Virus record (IMG/VR): IMGVR_UViG_2541047761_000008
Span: 1-7,626 of that record
Length of the DNA stretch: 7,626 nucleotides
Source: a virus
Lineage: Duplodnaviria; Heunggongvirae; Uroviricota; Caudoviricetes
Reading direction: 5' to 3' (one strand)
Made by a program: the position numbers and the translations under genes. The notes under the pieces are model-generated. The model ran no database searches. It had not been told where the DNA came from and saw only the letters and a program-made list of their open reading frames with translations. Positions 1 to 7,626 of this stretch are shown one piece after another. How positions within the stretch are numbered: the first letter of the stretch is position 1; the number at the start of each line of letters is the position of its first letter.

Positions 1-513
1 CACATCGAAAAATGTTTCGACCTGCCTGTCGGATGGCTTGATCAAGAACACCAGACAACAAACATCACAAAAAAACCTGATGTTTCAATTACTAACAAAC
101 AAATAACGTTAGTCCCTGTCATATCATGGGTACAGGCCGGAGCATGGAAAGAAGTTGGCTATTCTGAGGTTGATTTGAGCACAGCAGAAACTTATCCCTG
201 CCCTGTACCCTGTGGCGAAATGACTTATATCTTGCGGGTGATTGGTGATTCAATGATTGATGAGTACCGCCCGGGAGACATGATTTTTGTAGATCCTGAA
301 GTCCCTGCCTGCCACGGTGACGACGTTATTGCATTGATGCACGATACAGGCGAAACCACCTTCAAGCGATTGATAGAAGATGGAACACAGCGTTATCTCA
401 AAGCATTAAACCCAAACTGGCCTGAGCCTTACATTAAGATCAACGGTAATTGCTCTATAATTGGTACAGTAATTTTCTCAGGAAAACCAAGAAGATACAA
501 AATAAAGGCCTAA
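1..513 (+). CDS. CI/LexA-family phage repressor, C-terminal S24 peptidase (autocleavage) domain; 5'-partial, N-terminal HTH lies upstream of the window
   Basis: The reading frame is open from nt 1 to the stop at 511-513, so the track ORF start at 175 (a TTG) is an artefact. Translation carries the linker motif VPVISWVQAGAW (Ala-Gly cleavage site at nt 136-141), catalytic Ser in ILRVIGDSM (nt 250-252), Lys in TFKRLIEDG (nt 364-366) and LNPNWP, closely resembling lambda CI. Confidence 0.85.
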   Translation, partial: HIEKCFDLPVGWLDQEHQTTNITKKPDVSITNKQITLVPVISWVQAGAWKEVGYSEVDLSTAETYPCPVPCGEMTYILRVIGDSMIDEYRPGDMIFVDPEVPACHGDDVIALMHDTGETTFKRLIEDGTQRYLKALNPNWPEPYIKINGNCSIIGTVIFSGKPRRYKIKA

Positions 514-524
514 TCAATATTTAT

Positions 525-547
525 AACCTGCTTCGGCAGGTTTTTTT
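525..547 (+). terminator. Rho-independent terminator downstream of the repressor gene
   Basis: Stem AACCTGC (525-531) / GCAGGTT (536-542) with a TTCG tetraloop, running into a T7 tract (541-547), 12 nt after the repressor stop codon. Confidence 0.6.
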
Positions 548-551
548 ATAC

Positions 552-580
552 TTGACAATGTACCCTTGAGATACATAATG
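552..580 (+). promoter_or_regulatory. Sigma70-type promoter (pL-like) driving the downstream early operon
   Basis: Perfect -35 TTGACA (552-557), 16-bp spacer, -10 CATAAT (574-579); the upstream T-tract could act as a UP-like element. Predicted start around 586-588. Confidence 0.5.
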
Positions 581-585
581 TATCT
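569..585. promoter_or_regulatory. 17-bp palindromic operator-like site overlapping the -10 element
   Basis: AGATACAT-A-ATGTATCT: perfect 8-1-8 inverted repeat (569-585) covering the -10 hexamer. A possible extra half-site ATGTAC lies at 558-563. Size and placement resemble lambdoid OL operators. Confidence 0.45.
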
Positions 586-1199
586 AAAAGAAACATGCCA
601 CAGGCAAGATTAAACAAAATTTGGTTGTAACACGGCGTATGGCACATGCGTCGTTAGCGGTCTGGGGACGTTAAAGGGGACAATCCACTCCTTGCTCGGG
701 CAAACAAACCAGATAGCCGGAATGTGCAAGTCAATGAGGATGCTGATAAGACGCCTAACCAGCGTGGCGATTCGGTTTGACGCCTGGGAAGAGACCAGGG
801 TGCAACGATGAGGGCATTTATGGAACCGCGACAAAGTGTGGTGCCGTAACTGGCTAAGTGCTCTCAGCGTTGTGGTGAATGCGCAGGCTGATGCGCGAAA
901 GACATTGCAGCTATTGCGGAAAAGAGCTGTTCGGCGGGGCAATTAAACGCCCGTGAGAGTCTGAAATAACCGCAAGCCGGAGATCAGCACCGGTCACCAC
1001 AACAGCCACTGCTTTGGCGGTACCAGTTTGTACACTTGCTTCCGGCTGGTACCGCTCTTTTTACAAAACAGAGAAGAGCATCACCGGACGACGGGCTCAT
1101 AACCCAATCCATCCGGGCGGCTGTCACCGCAGGTGTTCTTCTCTGTTTTGTGGAGAAACCAACCGACCTTGCAGGGTCGGTATGATGAGGAGCAGCAAA

Positions 1200-1562
1200 A
1201 TGGCTAGCGTACGCAGTACTGATGTGCAGGTATTTATCGTAGAACTGGACGGCGGCGTATTTGAAACCAAACTCGGCGCAGTTCTCAGTGAAGTCGCTTC
1301 CGGTGTGATGAACACGAAAAACAAAGGTAAAGTCTCGGTCAATCTGGACATCGAACCGTTTGATGAGAACCGTGTGAAAATCAAACACAAACTCTCATAT
1401 GTTCGCCCGACTAACCGCGGGAAAATTTCCGAAGAAGACACCACCGAAACGCCGATGTATGTCAATCGAGGTGGTCGCCTGACTATTCTGCAGGAAGACC
1501 AGGGACAATTACTGACTCTTGCCGGTGAACCTGACGGAAAACTCCGCGCAGCAGGTCATTAA
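1200..1562 (+). CDS. yfdP: YfdP-like prophage protein (120 aa), function unknown
   Basis: ATG at 1200 is preceded by a strong SD GAGGAG (1187-1192, 7-nt spacing). The track ORF from 1014 adds a Cys/Arg-rich, non-protein-like N-terminal extension, so it is rejected. Length 120 aa and position directly upstream of yfdQ match the KplE1/CPS-53 yfdP gene as recalled. Confidence 0.7.
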   Translation: MASVRSTDVQVFIVELDGGVFETKLGAVLSEVASGVMNTKNKGKVSVNLDIEPFDENRVKIKHKLSYVRPTNRGKISEEDTTETPMYVNRGGRLTILQEDQGQLLTLAGEPDGKLRAAGH

Positions 1563-1627
1563 TATCGTTCTTAATTAACTGATTATTTATCTCATCACTG
1601 AATATCTTAATATAGTGAGGACTTATT

Positions 1628-2452
1628 ATGTCTCAGAACTTAGACGCAACCGCAATTAATCAAATCCATGCCCTTATTTCTGCTCAGGGTGTTAATGAAA
1701 TTATCAGTAAGATTGGTGCCGACGCAGTGGCATTACCTGAAAATTTCCGCATTCATGATCTGGAAAAATTTAATTTAAATCGCTTCCGTTTCCGTGGTGC
1801 GCTTTCCACTGCCAACATCGATGACTTTACCCGTTATTCTAAAGATCTTGCAGATGAAGGCACCCGCTGCTTTATCGATGCCGATAATATGCGTGCCGTC
1901 AGTGTGCTTAACCTGGGTACTATTGGTGAACCAGGTCACGCAGATAACACCGCCACACTCAAACTGAAAAAGACAGCACCGTTCTCTGCTCTGTTGTCTG
2001 TTAACGGCGAGCGTAACTCCCAGAAGTCACTGGCAGAATGGATTGAAGACTGGGCCGACTATCTTGTGGGCTTTGATGCTAATGGTGACGCTATTAAGGC
2101 AACAAAAGCGGCTGCGGCGGTCCGTAAAATCACGATTGAAGCAAACCAGACCGCTGATTTTGAAGATAATGACTTCAGCGGCAAACGCTCCCTGATGGAG
2201 TCTGTCGAAGCGAAGACCAAAGATATTATGCCAGTGGCATTTGAATTTAAATGCGTTCCGTTTGAAGGCCTGAAAGAACGTCCGTTTAAATTACGCCTCA
2301 GCATTATCACTGGCGATCGTCCTGTACTGGTTCTGCGCATTATTCAGCTGGAAGCAGTGCAGGAAGAAATGGCTAACGAATTTCGTGATCTGCTTGTTGA
2401 GAAATTCAAGGACAGCAAAGTAGAAACCTTTATTGGTACTTTTACCGCCTGA
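1628..2452 (+). CDS. yfdQ: YfdQ-like protein (DUF2303 family), 274 aa
   Basis: ATG at 1628 with SD GAGG (1617-1620). N-terminus [20 protein letters not shown] and the 274-aa length match recalled E. coli YfdQ; gene order yfdP-yfdQ-yfdR-yfdS is conserved. Confidence 0.88.
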
Positions 2453-2464
2453 TTTCATTACTGC

Positions 2465-2486
2465 AAATGCCCCTGCGGGGGCATTT
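2465..2486 (+). terminator. Stem-loop between yfdQ and yfdR; weak candidate intrinsic terminator or attenuator
   Basis: AAATGCCCC (2465-2473) / TGCG loop / GGGGCATTT (2478-2486), a 9-bp stem. The U-rich stretch is short (AUUUAU), so termination would be partial at best. Confidence 0.3.
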
Positions 2487-2579
2487 ATGGAAACGTAATT
2501 GACTCAATAATCGCCGGATGGTGAGGGCTTTCTTTTACCAGAATTCAGCGCGGTGCAGCGCATATACGTGGAGAACAAA

Positions 2580-3116
2580 ATGTCATTTATTAAAACTTTT
2601 TCCGGGAAGCATTTTTATTATGACAGGATAAATAAAGACGACATCGTGATTAACGATATCGCGGTTTCCCTTTCAAATATCTGTCGCTTTGCAGGACATC
2701 TTTCACACTTCTACAGTGTCGCCCAGCATGCGGTGCTTTGCAGCCAGCTGGTGCCGCAGGAATTTGCTTTTGAAGCGTTAATGCATGATGCAACAGAAGC
2801 GTATTGCCAGGATATTCCCGCTCCACTGAAACGCCTTCTTCCTGACTATAAACGGATGGAAGAAAAAATAGACGCCGTAATCCGTGAGAAATACGGGTTA
2901 CCCCCGGTTATGAGCACGCCTGTGAAATATGCCGATCTCATCATGCTGGCAACCGAACGCCGCGATCTCGGGCTTGATGATGGCTCTTTCTGGCCAGTAC
3001 TGGAAGGTATCCCGGCAACAGAAATGTTCAAAGTTATTCCACTGGCTCCGAGCCATGCCTACGGGATGTTTATGGAACGTTTTAACGAGTTATCGGAGTT
3101 ACGCAAATGCGCATGA
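2580..3116 (+). CDS. yfdR: HD-domain 5'-deoxynucleotidase YfdR (178 aa)
   Basis: ATG at 2580 with SD GGAG (2570-2573) gives 178 aa starting MSFIKTFSGKHFYYD, matching recalled K-12 YfdR; the track start at 2553 is an upstream GTG. HD-domain motif H...HD is present (SVAQHAV ... ALMHDATEAY). Confidence 0.9.
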   Translation: MSFIKTFSGKHFYYDRINKDDIVINDIAVSLSNICRFAGHLSHFYSVAQHAVLCSQLVPQEFAFEALMHDATEAYCQDIPAPLKRLLPDYKRMEEKIDAVIREKYGLPPVMSTPVKYADLIMLATERRDLGLDDGSFWPVLEGIPATEMFKVIPLAPSHAYGMFMERFNELSELRKCA

Positions 3117-3469
3117 ATGTTTTCGAAATGGAAGGGTTTCTTCGCGGGAAATGTGTACCACGAGATCTGAAAGTGAATGAAACAAATGCTGAGTACCTAG
3201 TACGTAAATTCGATGCGCTTGAAGCTAAATGTGCGGCACTGGAAAACAAAATAATACCAGTGTCAGCTGAACTGCCGCCAGCAAATGAAAGTGTTCTGTT
3301 ATTTGATGCTAACGGAGAAGGCTGGCTAATTGGCTGGCGTTCTCTCTGGTACACCTGGGGACAAAAAGAAACCGGAGAATGGCTGTGGACATTTCAGGTC
3401 GGGGACCTTGAAAACGTCAATATCACTCACTGGGCAGTAATGCCGAAAGCACCGAAGAATAAAAAATGA
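3107..3469 (+). CDS. yfdS: YfdS-like protein with C-terminal DUF551-type domain (120 aa)
   Basis: Start overlaps the yfdR stop by 10 nt. The 120-aa length matches recalled YfdS. C-terminus GWLIGWRS...ITHWAVMPKAP is typical of DUF551. Confidence 0.85.
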   Translation: MRMNVFEMEGFLRGKCVPRDLKVNETNAEYLVRKFDALEAKCAALENKIIPVSAELPPANESVLLFDANGEGWLIGWRSLWYTWGQKETGEWLWTFQVGDLENVNITHWAVMPKAPKNKK

Positions 3470-3669
3470 GCGTGATAAAAACTCATACAGGAATTGTTAT
3501 CACCCGAGACGGTCCGCAGGTAAAAAAACTGCACCAGACAAAGCGGATGTGGGTCGTCGGAAAAAACGAGTTTTACCACAAAGAAACCGGACGCCGCCAC
3601 TTTGCAGAAAATACTCGCCGCCGACTGCTGATCGATACCATCAAGCCTATCGAGGTGAAGCATGTTTAA
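3466..3669 (+). CDS. Hypothetical small protein (67 aa), basic
   Basis: ATG at 3466 overlaps the yfdS stop (ATGA coupling). Same strand and coupled to flanking genes. No family recognised. Confidence 0.55.
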   Translation: MSVIKTHTGIVITRDGPQVKKLHQTKRMWVVGKNEFYHKETGRRHFAENTRRRLLIDTIKPIEVKHV

Positions 3670-3901
3670 ACAGAACGAAAAATCTATCGCTCAAATTGCT
3701 GAGTATATCCCGCGTGCGTGCCGGGGTATGCAGTTGCAGGAAGCCAAAGCACGCCTGGAGAAAAAAATTGCGCTCTATATCGATGACGGCTGTGATGCTG
3801 CCGTTCTTAACGCGGCGTTCGCGCCAGCTCTTAACAGTCATACGCGAAAGTCTTTTTTTTCGTGCATCGCAGCGCAGATCCGTAAAGGAGGCAACCAGTG
3901 A
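3662..3901 (+). CDS. Hypothetical small protein (79 aa)
   Basis: ATG at 3662 with SD GAGGTG 6 nt upstream, overlapping the end of the previous ORF by 8 nt. Contains a T8 homopolymer (3853-3860) in frame. No family recognised. Confidence 0.6.
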   Translation: MFKQNEKSIAQIAEYIPRACRGMQLQEAKARLEKKIALYIDDGCDAAVLNAAFAPALNSHTRKSFFSCIAAQIRKGGNQ

Positions 3902-4497
3902 GCAACATTAACTATCAGGTACTGCGTGAAAAGGCAGAGAAAGCAACTAAAGGAAGCTACATCGTAGGGCATACATCTGTTAACCAACACGGCAATTTAA
4001 CAGGAGTTTTTGTTTGTCAAAAATGGAAAGGAGAACCCGGTGGCGTAATTGCAGAATGTCACGTTAACTGCCTGGTTGAAACAGATGCTCAGGCTTATGC
4101 AAACGCTGAATTCATAGCAGAGGCTAACCCGGCTACCGTGCTGGCACTGCTGGATGAACAGGAAAGAAACCAGCAATACATCAAACGCCGCGACCAGGAG
4201 AACGAGGATATTGCGCTAACGGTAGGGAAGCTGCGCGTTGAGCTTGAGGAGACAAAATCAAAACTCAACGAGCAGCGCGAGTATTACGAGGGAGTTATCT
4301 CTGATGGGTGCAAGCGTATTGCTGAACTGGAAGCGCGGGAAGTTCAATTACCGACTCGCTACGACCTTCGATATGGACACCCCATAAATGCAGATGAGCG
4401 ACAAGTCATGATACCTAAAGAAAATGGCAGTTGGCTTTACCTGATTGACCTAGAACACGCATTACGCGTCGCTGACATTCGCATCAAAGGAGAGTGA
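3898..4497 (+). CDS. Ead/Ea22-like family protein (199 aa)
   Basis: GTG start at 3898 with a perfect SD AGGAGG (3886-3891), overlapping the previous stop (GTGA). Motifs MSNINYQVLREKAEKATKG and ANPATVLALLDE resemble recalled Ead/Ea22-like prophage proteins. The central segment is heptad/charge-rich (LRVELEETKSKLNEQREYYE), a likely coiled coil. Confidence 0.85.
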   Translation: MSNINYQVLREKAEKATKGSYIVGHTSVNQHGNLTGVFVCQKWKGEPGGVIAECHVNCLVETDAQAYANAEFIAEANPATVLALLDEQERNQQYIKRRDQENEDIALTVGKLRVELEETKSKLNEQREYYEGVISDGCKRIAELEAREVQLPTRYDLRYGHPINADERQVMIPKENGSWLYLIDLEHALRVADIRIKGE

Positions 4498-4498
4498 T

Positions 4499-4763
4499 AT
4501 GGCAACTTTGACAAAAAAAGAACAAGCATGGTTGAGCGAATTACAGGACGTTCTTGATCGCTGCCCATCACCGAAAAAAAATTGGTTTTTACACCATTGG
4601 CGATAAAAGCATTTACCTGTATGACCTGCGCCGCATGGATGAAATCATGGAGGCTCTTGATAATCGTTCGTCAATGGATTGGTGTGTTGCTGTTCATGAT
4701 ATGAATGCCGGATTTGATGAAAAGATTTTATTCCCCTCATCAGTTGAAAGTACAGCAGGATAA
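4499..4763 (+). CDS. Hypothetical small protein, apparently frameshifted in an A8 tract (two frames, 4499-4606 and 4554-4763; about 87 aa if A7)
   Basis: ATG at 4499 with SD AAGGAGAG and a 1-nt gap after the Ead stop opens a frame that stops at 4604-4606. The downstream frame to 4763 has no ATG before the tract, only a TTG at 4554. The two frames join across A8 (4574-4581) if one A is removed. Confidence 0.5.
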
Positions 4764-4773
4764 GGACTAACAC

Positions 4774-5535
4774 ATGACCACTATTACCAAAGAGCGACTG
4801 CTGACAATCAGGCAGTGGCGCGAAACATACGGACCTGGTAGCAACGTTGTACTGCCAGCAGAAGAAGCGGAAGAACTGGCACGAATTGCTCTGGCATCGC
4901 TGGAAGCAGAGCCGATAGGTTTCCGTTGCAGGCGCAATGATAACCTTGGTGATTGGAGTTACGTATATCATCGAGAGCCAGATGATTTTGAGCGCAAACA
5001 TTTAGTGATAGAGGGCATTTACGCCGCCCCTCCAGCACCGGTAGTGCCTGAAGAAGCAACTCCGGAAAACGTAGAAATGCTCTCTGGCTATGTTTCAACG
5101 TACAAATTAACCGATAGCGAGCGCGATATTGCTGCCGAAATATGGAACGCCTGCCGCGCCGCCATGCTTCAGTCCGGAAACTTTCGGGAAAACAAGAATT
5201 CGTCAACCAATAATTTTCGGGAAATCGCGGAAACGTCAACCAACTATCCGGCAATTCCTAGTGAGGTGTTGTCCGCAATCCTGAAGGTTGCCAGGATTCG
5301 TGCCGATTTCGATGATTTTGACGGTGACAGGCGAGGTATCGGTGATTGTCTGGATGAGGCTGAGCAAGAGCTTATCGTTACCATTAACAAATATGCCAGT
5401 CAGTTGGCAGCAGAACCTATAGCGCCTAATGACGTTCGAGAGCAGACAGCCATTCCACAAGTTCCGGTAACTCCGGATGGTTGGATAAGCTGTAGTGAGC
5501 GAATGCCGGACGACAGGCAGGAGGTGAATCAATGA
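4774..5535 (+). CDS. Hypothetical prophage protein (253 aa) ending in the start of a DUF551-like motif; internal 11-residue tandem repeat
   Basis: ATG at 4774 with an AAGGA-type SD. The C-terminal WISCSERMPDDRQEV parallels YfdS residues IPVSAELPPANESVLLF but stops where the DUF551 body should continue. Contains the tandem repeat NFRENKNSSTN / NFREIAETSTN. Confidence 0.8.
   Translation: MTTITKERLLTIRQWRETYGPGSNVVLPAEEAEELARIALASLEAEPIGFRCRRNDNLGDWSYVYHREPDDFERKHLVIEGIYAAPPAPVVPEEATPENVEMLSGYVSTYKLTDSERDIAAEIWNACRAAMLQSGNFRENKNSSTNNFREIAETSTNYPAIPSEVLSAILKVARIRADFDDFDGDRRGIGDCLDEAEQELIVTINKYASQLAAEPIAPNDVREQTAIPQVPVTPDGWISCSERMPDDRQEVNQ
5179..5243 (+). repeat. Imperfect 33-bp tandem direct repeat (2 copies), in frame within the 253-aa CDS
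   Basis: Copy 1 AACTTTCGGGAAAACAAGAATTCGTCAACCAA (5179-5210) and copy 2 TAATTTTCGGGAAATCGCGGAAACGTCAACCAA (5211-5243), about 75% identical. They encode the protein-level repeat NFRE...STN twice. Confidence 0.5.
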
Positions 5536-5615
5536 GCTGGCCTGATGCAATCGTAACTCTGGGGGTGGTCTTCGCAGCAGCGTTTGTTGTGTTCTCGATT
5601 TGTCGATGGGGATAA
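5532..5615 (+). CDS. Candidate 27-aa hydrophobic (single-TM-like) small peptide
   Basis: ATG at 5532 overlaps the previous stop (ATGA) and sits 8 nt after a perfect SD AGGAGG (5518-5523). Translation MSWPDAIVTLGVVFAAAFVVFSICRWG has an 18-residue hydrophobic core. Below the track length cutoff; not verified by homology. Confidence 0.4.
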   Translation: MSWPDAIVTLGVVFAAAFVVFSICRWG

Positions 5616-5619
5616 CCAC

Positions 5620-5862
5620 ATGTTCGCTTTGATTCAACGCGGTCAGATATACACGGACAGAGCTGGATACCCCGTGGTGATTACTCGCATCACTGAGCAC
5701 TCAGTGTTCTTTCGACGGATGGACGGACGATCCGGGCGGGTACGCATTGGTGAGTTAAACTGCCTGTTCGAACATATTGACCACCAGGAGTACCGCAAAA
5801 TTCTCGCGGACACTGAGCAGGAAAAGCACCTGAAAAAATTACGAGCCATAAAAAGGAAGTAA
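5620..5862 (+). CDS. DUF4222-like small prophage protein (80 aa from ATG 5620; the track uses a TTG at 5584)
   Basis: ATG at 5620 with a GGGGA SD-like motif (5607-5611). Sequence MFALIQRGQIYTDRAGYPVVITRITEHSVFFRRMDGRSGRVRIGELNCLFEHI resembles recalled DUF4222 proteins found near prophage xis/int. Confidence 0.7.
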   Translation: MFALIQRGQIYTDRAGYPVVITRITEHSVFFRRMDGRSGRVRIGELNCLFEHIDHQEYRKILADTEQEKHLKKLRAIKRK

Positions 5863-5865
5863 AGA

Positions 5866-6012
5866 ATGAATAAAGCATTTGAACGATGGGTCCACCAGCG
5901 TTACGGCAATCGCTATGACCTGACGCGAGATGTTGACGGCTTCTACTGTCGTGAAGTTGTGAAGCGAATGTTTGAAGTGTGGTGCCACTGCCGTGGGCTG
6001 AGTGTTGTGTGA
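5866..6012 (+). CDS. Candidate 48-aa Cys/His-containing small protein
   Basis: ATG at 5866 with SD AAGGAAG (5853-5859, 6-nt spacing), starting 3 nt after the upstream stop and ending 8 nt before xis. Translation MNKAFERWVHQRYGNRYDLTRDVDGFYCREVVKRMFEVWCHCRGLSVV. Absent from the track because it is under 60 aa. Confidence 0.45.
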   Translation: MNKAFERWVHQRYGNRYDLTRDVDGFYCREVVKRMFEVWCHCRGLSVV

Positions 6013-6020
6013 GGTAATAC

Positions 6021-6257
6021 ATGGGCAATGTGATTCAACTGGCTCCCAATGAATGGGTTTGTGAAAGCGTTCTTATCGCAATTACCGGGCTCAAACCAGG
6101 CACAATTCTTCGGGCCCGGAAAGAATGCTGGATGGTTGGAAGAGAGTATATTCACGTATCACCAGACGGTAATCCAAAGCCTTCCAGTGAATGTATGTAT
6201 AACAGAAAAGCAATAGATGCCTGGGTCGCCTCAATGAAAAACAAACAACCCAGGTGA
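6021..6257 (+). CDS. xis: Excisionase (Xis-like small DNA-binding protein, 78 aa)
   Basis: ATG at 6021 with SD GAGGT (6011-6015). Small basic protein directly upstream of and co-directional with the integrase; recalled similarity to putative-excisionase family proteins (LIAITGLKPGTILRARKECW). Confidence 0.72.
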   Translation: MGNVIQLAPNEWVCESVLIAITGLKPGTILRARKECWMVGREYIHVSPDGNPKPSSECMYNRKAIDAWVASMKNKQPR

Positions 6258-6312
6258 TTTAATATCATGAAATATGTAAGCTCGTATCGCTCTTGGGCGT
6301 CTGGAGGTATCG

Positions 6313-7626
6313 ATGGATAAAGTCAAATATCCAACAGGCGTCGAAAACCACGGCGGCACATTACGCATCTGGTTTAATTTTAAAGGTAAACGTGTCAGGG
6401 AAAATCTTGGTGTCCCTGACACTGCCAAGAACAGGAAGATCGCCGGGGAACTGCGGACATCAGTATGTTTTGCCATCCGCACAGGAAGCTTTGATTATGC
6501 TGCACAGTTCCCTGACTCCCCCAACCTTCAGGCTTTTGGGGTAAGTAAAAAAGAAATTACGGTGAAGGAACTTGAAGAAAAGTGGCTGGATCTGAAACGA
6601 ATGGAAATCTCTGCAAATGCATTCAATCGCTATGAATCCGTTGCAAGAACGATGGTTCCGAAAATTGGAGGCAGCAGACTGGTGTCATCGGTAACTAAAG
6701 AGGAATTGCTGTATATCAGGAAAGATTTGCTGACCGGGTATCAGCATTCAACGAAAAACAAAGCAGCAGCAAAAGGACGGAGCGTCGTTACTGTAAATTA
6801 TTACATGACGACAATCGCTGGAATGTTTCAGTTTGCTGCAGATCACGGTTACTTAGAAGCAAATCCCTTCCAGGGAATTAAGCCTCTTAAAAGAGCCAGG
6901 GCAGAGCCAGATCCGCTAACTCGTGACGAATTTATTCGCCTGATAGATGCTTGCCGACATCAGCAGACGAAAAACCTGTGGTCATTGGCTGTGTACACAG
7001 GAATGCGTCACGGTGAACTGGTCTCCCTGGCCTGGGAAGATATCGATCTGAAAGCAGGAACTATTACTATCAGGCGCAATTATACGAAACTCGGTGAGTT
7101 CACTCTACCTAAAACTGAAGCAAGTACAAACAGGGTTGTGCATCTTATCCAGCCCGCTATCAGTGTCCTGAAAAATCAGGCTGAAATGACAAGACTGGGT
7201 AAGCAGCACCACATCAAGGTTCAACTACGTGAATATGGGCGTTCAGTGAATCATGAATGTACTTTCGTATTTAACCCCCAGGAGGTTAGAAAAAGCAAAC
7301 AGGTCGGTTTTATCTACAAGGTAGATTCTATTGGCGACTCATGGGAAACAGCCATTAAGCGTGCGGGCATCAGGCACCGGAAAGCATACCAGTCACGACA
7401 CACTTATGCGTGCTGGTCATTATCTGCCGGAGCAAACCCAAGCTTCATTGCCAGCCAGATGGGCCATGCAAGTGCCCAGATGGTGTTCAATGTATACGGA
7501 GCATGGATGACTGACAGTAATGCAGAACAGATCGCAATGCTGAATCAGAAGCTGGCAGATTATGTCCCAATGATGTCCCATGGTCACCAAAGTGACACAA
7601 GAGACTTATTAAAATCAGTAGGTTAG
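6313..7626 (+). CDS. int: Site-specific tyrosine recombinase / phage integrase with N-terminal arm-binding domain (DUF3596 type), 437 aa
   Basis: ATG at 6313 with SD GGAGGT (6303-6308). N-terminus YPTGVENHGGTLRIWFNFKGKRVRENLG resembles e14/Sf6-type integrases. Catalytic region has GMRHGELVSLAWEDIDL, HRKAYQSRHTYACW and MGHASAQMVFNVYGAW (R, H-x-x-R and Tyr nucleophile). Stop TAG at 7624-7626. Confidence 0.95.
   Translation: MDKVKYPTGVENHGGTLRIWFNFKGKRVRENLGVPDTAKNRKIAGELRTSVCFAIRTGSFDYAAQFPDSPNLQAFGVSKKEITVKELEEKWLDLKRMEISANAFNRYESVARTMVPKIGGSRLVSSVTKEELLYIRKDLLTGYQHSTKNKAAAKGRSVVTVNYYMTTIAGMFQFAADHGYLEANPFQGIKPLKRARAEPDPLTRDEFIRLIDACRHQQTKNLWSLAVYTGMRHGELVSLAWEDIDLKAGTITIRRNYTKLGEFTLPKTEASTNRVVHLIQPAISVLKNQAEMTRLGKQHHIKVQLREYGRSVNHECTFVFNPQEVRKSKQVGFIYKVDSIGDSWETAIKRAGIRHRKAYQSRHTYACWSLSAGANPSFIASQMGHASAQMVFNVYGAWMTDSNAEQIAMLNQKLADYVPMMSHGHQSDTRDLLKSVG

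Follow-up and report, generated by a model that had tools for sequence, protein, structure and literature searches.

Positions 552 to 596 of the window, by which we mean the whole 7,626-nucleotide stretch of viral DNA analysed here (positions 1 to 7,626 of IMG/VR record IMGVR_UViG_2541047761_000008), are likely to constitute the early-left promoter PL and the operators OL of an SfV/cdtI/e14-type lambdoid prophage, with two 19-bp repressor sites. The unit recognized by the repressor is probably the dyad ATGTACC-N5-GGTACAT, binding itself being deduced from the pattern of sites. Regarding the perfect 17-bp palindrome AGATACAT-A-ATGTATCT, which a sequence-only reading had proposed as the operator, it appears to have no role as a unit and would simply arise from the inverted half-sites of two adjacent operators lying one base apart. 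The control region is an ordinary lambdoid PL/OL with its own recognition sequence: it is located downstream of cI on the same strand, it carries dyads of the family found in the OR of its relatives, and its operators overlap promoter elements.

The window is the cI-to-int arm of a prophage of this type. Its positions 1-1300 match phage cdtI (98.4%), Stx2c-converting phages, Ayreon and 2H10, as well as, in part, SfV and SfIV, and some part of this stretch is carried by 3000 of 5426 complete E. coli genomes. Every annotated relative has the same gene order, with cro and cI diverging from an intergenic region and, beyond cI, the terminator, the promoter, genes on the cI strand (yfdP, yfdQ, yfdR and others) and xis/int. 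In the window, the integrase (6313-7626) lies on the same strand as cI and PL and ends the sequence, while PL is directed away from cI, toward yfdP/yfdQ/yfdR and int. The earlier proposal of a repressor-controlled early-left promoter is thus supported by its position directly 3' of a cI-type gene and by its orientation toward int.

The translated end of the repressor gene contains the residues expected for self-cleavage, i.e., Ala-Gly at 136-141, the Ser of GDSM at 250-252 and the Lys of FKRL at 364-366. The full-length orthologue from cdtI matches Pfam Peptidase_S24 (PF00717; E 1.5e-26), and the best PDB matches of the repressor are structures of the lambda cI C-terminal domain. With the S24 domain, the Ala-Gly site and the Ser/Lys dyad all found, the protein is predicted to be a self-cleaving repressor of the cI/LexA type. 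In RefSeq it is called ymfK, LexA family, ymfK being the name of the e14 repressor. In its N-terminal 90 residues no Pfam helix-turn-helix was found at E <= 0.01; residues 1-92 match PHROG repressor families and, weakly, the N-domain of the SPC32H repressor in the PDB (E 0.0026).

Several elements described by the sequence-only reading were recovered exactly: the consensus -35 TTGACA, the near-consensus -10 CATAAT, the palindrome (8+1+8) lying over this -10 and the location of the promoter just 3' of the terminator of the repressor gene (Table 1). The repressor ORF ends with a stop codon at 511-513, followed by the terminator hairpin and its T-run, and the promoter starts two bases further on, positions 552-596 reading TTGACA ATGTACCCTTGAGATACAT A ATGTATCTAAAAGAAACAT. 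The SfV and Ayreon records both annotate this terminator, which is conserved among orthologues with a covarying stem; the GenBank record of Ayreon also has a "promoter" annotated at the position equivalent to PL. As read from its hexamers, the promoter is of the near-consensus sigma-70 type, and the promoter scan ranked it first in the whole window, with 11 of 12 hexamer positions matched. Among 1000 random windows matched in composition, 12.8% nevertheless contained a match of at least 11/12, and perfect palindromes with 8-bp arms occurred 0.48 times per random window. Taken alone, the promoter match and the palindrome are each statistically unremarkable, and because both are common by chance the case depends on context and comparison. 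What does stand above chance is placement, the palindrome falling on the -10 of the single best promoter, together with conservation: none of the 12 hexamer positions shows appreciable variation among 21 distinct orthologous sequences, which come from many genera. The recurrence of the half-site motif in the cI-cro region of relatives likewise exceeds chance. The palindrome was also considered as an RNA hairpin and rejected, as it lies upstream of the predicted start and its loop would be 1 nt.

Table 1. Features of the control region and of the leader, with positions in the window (a dot stands for features given without strand).
Feature	Positions	Strand	Description and basis
cI/YmfK(CohE)-type repressor, last 170 codons	1..513	+	Translation; linker and S24 self-cleavage domain
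Intrinsic terminator of the repressor gene	525..549	+	AACCTGC-TTCG-GCAGGTT then T7; terminator scan
-35 of early-left promoter PL	552..557	+	TTGACA; promoter scan; invariant in 21 distinct orthologous sequences
Predicted OL1 dyad	558..576	.	ATGTACC-CTTGA-GATACAT; one mismatch to ATGTACC-N5-GGTACAT
Perfect palindrome	569..585	.	AGATACAT-A-ATGTATCT; OL1 right half and OL2 left half with one base (A577) between
-10 of PL	574..579	+	CATAAT, 16-bp spacer; promoter scan; invariant in orthologues
Predicted OL2 dyad	578..596	.	ATGTATC-TAAAA-GAAACAT; three mismatches; weaker
Predicted PL transcription start	586..588	+	7-9 nt past -10; from usual promoter geometry
First ~25 nt of transcript, immunity module	586..612	+	Shared leader module begins at ~613
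Conserved RNA-like element, ~185 nt	628-812	+	Five-version alignment: 47 predicted pairs, 11 with compensatory double changes
Intrinsic terminator in the PL leader	1016-1062	+	GGCGGTACCAG...CTGGTACCGC plus TCTTTTT
Three-armed RNA-like element	1063-1158	+	33 predicted pairs, 8 with compensatory changes

The sequence-only reading had seen only one full site, accompanied by a possible half-site at 558-563. This count was wrong, since two sites can be discerned: the ATGTAC present at 558-563 belongs to a full site, OL1, of which it forms the left half, and OL1 takes up the promoter spacer and extends into the -10 by three bases. Next comes the weaker OL2, which shares the final two bases of the -10 and covers the predicted start site. 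The distance between the two centres is 20 bp. No third operator was found in OL, where two sites only lie within 3 mismatches of the dyad; OR has three. The 8-bp half-site is not enriched in the window when one mismatch is allowed (8 vs 5.4 expected), so that half-site counts alone are uninformative and it is the fixed-spacing dyad that stands out.

A search for the half-site in the repressor-cro region had been suggested as a check. This region of the prophage lies outside the window, and OR was taken from close relatives (98-99% identical), phage cdtI and E. coli NR3736, whose cI-cro regions were used because their OL is identical to that of the window. The half-site recurs there, within three copies of the 19-bp dyad and in none of the 17-bp arrangement. 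In the 15.3-kb NR3736 sequence, ATGTAC-N7-ATACAT occurs exactly twice, once in the cI-cro spacer and once as OL1, and none of 200 shuffles matched. When up to 3 mismatches are allowed, the same sequence contains five matches to the dyad ATGTACC-N5-GGTACAT, three in OR and two in OL, against 0.39 expected; this consensus was built from the same sites, the ATGTAC-N7-ATACAT search and the comparison with phage mEp460 described below being the only tests free of circularity.

A wider comparison was made over 21 distinct orthologous loci (~0.13 Mb), obtained from a one-genome-per-species search with the cdtI repressor and from phage records. The orthologous repressors are 73-99% identical and originate from Escherichia, Pseudocitrobacter, Klebsiella, Leclercia, Atlantibacter, Phytobacter, Enterobacter, Pantoea, Trabulsiella, Kluyvera, Limnobaculum, Rahnella, Edwardsiella and others. 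Across these genera OL reads TTGACA-ATGTACC-(five variable)-G(G/A)TACAT-A-ATGTACC-(variable)-roughly G.AACA, the 7-bp half-sites of OL1 being invariant and its central 5 bp freely variable in 21 distinct OL sequences, and the cI-proximal OR site follows the same scheme, TTGTACC-(five variable bases)-GGTACA, in 20 distinct OR sequences. The invariance of 552-557 and 574-579 is explained by the promoter hexamers. These hexamers do not account for that of 558-564, 570-573 and 580-584, which is explained by operator half-sites. At a shorter evolutionary distance, 25 OL variants are seen in 79 viral contigs encoding a repressor 99-100% identical to that of cdtI, with variation concentrated in OL2 and in the five-base centre of OL1 and not in the half-sites of OL1. 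The motif, its architecture and its conservation, like its co-occurrence with the repressor type, can be read directly in these loci.

The status of OL2 is the point on which another reading carries some weight. OL1 could be the sole real operator, one dimer in the spacer sufficing to shut PL, and 578-596 would then not be a repressor site. OL2 does deviate from the consensus at three positions. Its left half is invariant, which might reflect constraints from the promoter and the initial transcript, and its right half (GNWACA) is only moderately conserved, with two mismatches in the window and no counterpart in four orthologues (L009, L012, L015, L016); a second OL site was scored in only 5 of the 21 loci at the thresholds of the arrangement scan described below. 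Nevertheless, GTACC at 580-584 is needed by no promoter element and yet is invariant across genera, and the right half retains G..ACA in most loci. Moreover, at PR a strong site, the cro-proximal OR site, likewise begins in the last two bases of the -10, a placement identical to that of OL2 at PL and which supports OL2 as a real site. We thus regard a single-operator OL1 as unlikely and retain two sites in OL.

Even less probable, indeed very unlikely in our view, is that the 17-bp palindrome is a single operator accommodating one repressor dimer, 558-563 being no more than a stray half-site. It is true that the perfect palindrome is centred on the -10 and that a palindrome at the seam, GGTACAT-A-ATGTACC in other genera, is kept in all orthologues. 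However, when both half-site orientations were scanned at every spacing from 0 to 12 in the 21 loci, facing half-sites across 5 bp, i.e., the 19-bp dyad, gave 60 occurrences in OR, 26 in OL and 5 elsewhere, OL containing none at any other spacing, whereas back-to-back half-sites across 1 bp, i.e., the palindrome, were found 21 times in OL, once in OR and once elsewhere. The proposal that the palindrome is the operator is not borne out by such a distribution. In addition, the seam between two OR sites is GGTAC-TT-GTACC, with a spacing three bases shorter than that of the OL seam; a single rigid dimer could not fit both, which leaves the 19-bp dyad as the constant feature. With up to 3 mismatches allowed, the 17-bp pattern has no match besides itself in the 15.3 kb of NR3736, and a single-palindrome operator leaves the invariant ATGTACC at 558-564 unexplained. 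Finally, the perfect 8+1+8 form is found only in the window/cdtI lineage, whereas SfV/e14-type sequences with the same repressor have GATACAT-A-ATGTACC.

The two positions responsible for this difference are 583 and 585. SfV/e14-type sequences have ATGTACCC where the window has ATGTATCT, and the letters of the window at both positions render the right arm exactly complementary to the left one. The perfect variant is linked to the window-type leader. Such changes would be consistent with a template-switch mutation at a quasi-palindrome or, simply, with an exchange of modules by recombination.

Phage mEp460 (ST64B-type repressor) provides a natural specificity-swap control. Like the window, it has a repressor gene, a terminator and a promoter with dyads, and from position 613 onward its leader is 99.3% identical to that of the window. 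In contrast, its repressor, although of the same general type, is a different one, ATGTACC is absent, and both OL and OR have TTGC...GCAA dyads that match each other. The operator sequence thus changes with the repressor type, and since the dyads differ while the leader is shared, they travel with the repressor and not with the downstream sequence. Within the immunity module, AAGAAACA-N4-ACAGGCA(A/G)GA is common to both leader types linked to the repressor of the window. That the promoter might be constitutive or governed by another factor, for instance as a moron-type promoter with neutral repeats, is scarcely credible despite the individual commonness of the promoter match and of the palindrome, given that the motif is shared with OR at an exact spacing, is conserved from Escherichia to Edwardsiella while spacers vary, and is replaced along with the repressor in mEp460.

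The OR region of the relatives has an unusual organization. Three dyads are present in the cI-cro region of cdtI (L002, 2754-2822), and likewise in SfV (L003), with centre-to-centre spacings of 33 and 17 bp, so that two sites overlap by 2 bp, and the cro-proximal site covers the cro ribosome-binding site. In cdtI and SfV, a TTTAAT -10 precedes the cI ATG by 6 nt, in keeping with the leaderless ymfK mRNA published for e14 (PMC4681348); by analogy, cI is probably made from a leaderless mRNA. A "putative operator region" is annotated in the GenBank record of SfV (U82619), and both of its ends coincide exactly with the first and the last of the three OR dyads. Judging from this record, the OR sites seem to have been recognized long ago. 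In the records of the relatives examined, only the OR region is annotated and the OL sites in none. The papers mentioning YmfK that were examined contained no operator data, and binding or expression data for this repressor were likewise not found in the literature examined.

Among well-known systems, lambda PL/OL (OL1-OL3) is the obvious counterpart. As in the window, it follows directly the repressor gene and fires away from it toward recombination and int genes, its operators are common to OL and OR and overlap promoter hexamers, and its repressor has the same kind of S24 self-cleaving C-terminal domain. In contrast to the 17-bp sites of lambda, those described here are dyads of 19 bp in which two 7-bp half-sites flank an unconstrained 5-bp centre, and the recognition sequences are unrelated. 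Furthermore, lambda, 434 and P22 have three tandem operators whereas OL here has two sites 1 bp apart, and the OR spacings, including the 2-bp overlap, are unlike those of lambda. Close parallels are SfV and the E. coli K-12 e14 element with its CohE(YmfK)/CroE pair, which share the repressor family, the three OR dyads, the PL -35, OL1 and the -10. A cI protein 99-100% identical to that of cdtI is found in many SfV-like contigs. In the SfV/e14 type, however, OL2 is ATGTACCCAAGAGAAACAA, which makes the seam palindrome imperfect there, and the leader is a different module after about +25. With the LexA (SOS) box, the locus shares a palindrome placed over a promoter in an SOS-inducible element. 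The earlier statement that this palindrome is not a LexA box held, however, since CTGT-N8-ACAG has no match near 552-596 or within 3 kb with up to one mismatch, and SOS control would here be indirect, via self-cleavage of the phage repressor.

Repressor binding, cooperativity, repression and the transcription start are what we infer from these comparisons, and they lead to a simple scheme. In the lysogen, repressor dimers would sit side by side on OL1 and OL2, probably cooperatively, and exclude RNA polymerase from PL. Following DNA damage, RecA-stimulated cleavage at the Ala-Gly site would remove the repressor and PL would fire, while the small Cro-like protein (YmfT) presumably re-uses the same sites later. 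As the OR spacings differ from those of lambda, cooperativity of the lambda kind should not be taken for granted.

The operator code ATGTACC-N5-GGTACAT and the OL/PL layout are thereby defined for a very common enterobacterial immunity group, which includes e14-like and SfV-like prophages as well as cdt- and Stx2c-converting phages. This code will be useful to predict superinfection immunity, to annotate prophages and to design induction reporters. It also calls for caution, as a striking perfect palindrome can be the by-product of two adjacent operators and not the site itself. The more interesting lead is nonetheless found behind PL, in the form of structured and unannotated leader RNA modules which may bear on terminator read-through without N.

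The first convincing gene of the operon, yfdP, starts at 1200, leaving a leader of about 610 nt. Within this leader, the element at 628-812 is conserved in blocks in very different phages, namely mEp460, Stx2a/Stx2c phages, TL-2011b, P1/P7, D6 and SPC32N. In P1/P7, D6, TL-2011b and SPC32N, only a few bases separate it from a tRNA gene, which is on the same strand in P7, D6, TL-2011b and SPC32N. It is annotated in none of the phage records examined and is a candidate new phage noncoding RNA. Further downstream, the terminator at 1016-1062 has a stem that covaries among genera, with TTGGCGG fixed; its long loop caused it to escape the pattern scan. Lying ahead of the first gene, this terminator implies that the early-left genes depend on read-through or antitermination for their expression. 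The three-armed element sits directly after this terminator and before the ribosome-binding site, and different first genes follow it in different loci. It consists of a 19-20-bp closing stem, a hairpin with a conserved CTCATAA loop and a variable third arm, and its long perfect stem might suit RNase III, as in the lambda N leader.

Searches for known RNAs returned little. Rfam gave nothing for the whole window at E <= 1 and, in four other phage loci with the leader element, only flanking tRNAs; ARAGORN detected no tRNA in the window, and strings of the leader RNA sequence were not found in the literature. Folding of 586-1085 as a single sequence gave a modest z-score of -2.3. Regarding coding potential, the minus-strand ORF at 610-942 has no PHROG match. 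Two ORFs overlap on opposite strands, 984-1388 (minus), which matches phrog_3651 (E 1e-78), and 1200-1562 (plus), which is yfdP and matches phrog_204 (E 2.5e-48). The former is probably a propagated mis-annotation (cdtI orf40), because it crosses the terminator and the three-armed element.

SfV/e14-type leaders contain another structured module, absent from the window: a 65-nt element that starts about 15 nt into the PL transcript (L003, 3601-3659; L005, 3263-3321) and whose stem shows clear compensatory changes (CCTGG/CCAGG, CCGGT/ACCGG, CCCCA/TGGGG and CCCGG/CCGGG). It may be a cis-acting antiterminator RNA in phages devoid of N. On the cro side of the loci examined, the element was not found again. 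A relationship with HK022 put was considered and rejected, as the element has no sequence similarity to any part of HK022. In addition, a small covarying hairpin in the e14-type PL leader is followed by an exact rrn-type boxA, GCTCTTTAACAA (L005, 3353-3364; L019, 1961-1972), and this boxA is found within 400 nt of PL in 29 of the 79 viral contigs with the window-type repressor. The presence of this boxA suggests Nus-factor-dependent antitermination without an N protein.

Because phages of the SfV/e14-type group are reported to lack N, cII and cIII (PMC3851460), RNA- or Nus-factor-based read-through of the leader terminator is an attractive idea. Going further, it is possible, if rather doubtful, that the first product of PL is a noncoding transcript of ~480 nt, running from 586 to the leader terminator around the 628-812 RNA, and that N-less SfV/e14-type phages gate their early-left operon by RNA modules and not by N, using the 628-812 RNA in the lineage of the window and the 65-nt RNA together with the rrn-type boxA in the SfV/e14 lineage.

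Finally, between the first leader element and the terminator, a ~40-nt stretch on the plus strand at 855-900, beginning GCTAAGTGCTCTCAGCGTTGTGGTGA..., has ~90% matches in many unrelated phages of Klebsiella, Salmonella, Cronobacter and Escherichia, including ~157-kb ones. In TL-2011b, a tRNA gene begins directly after a stretch of this type.
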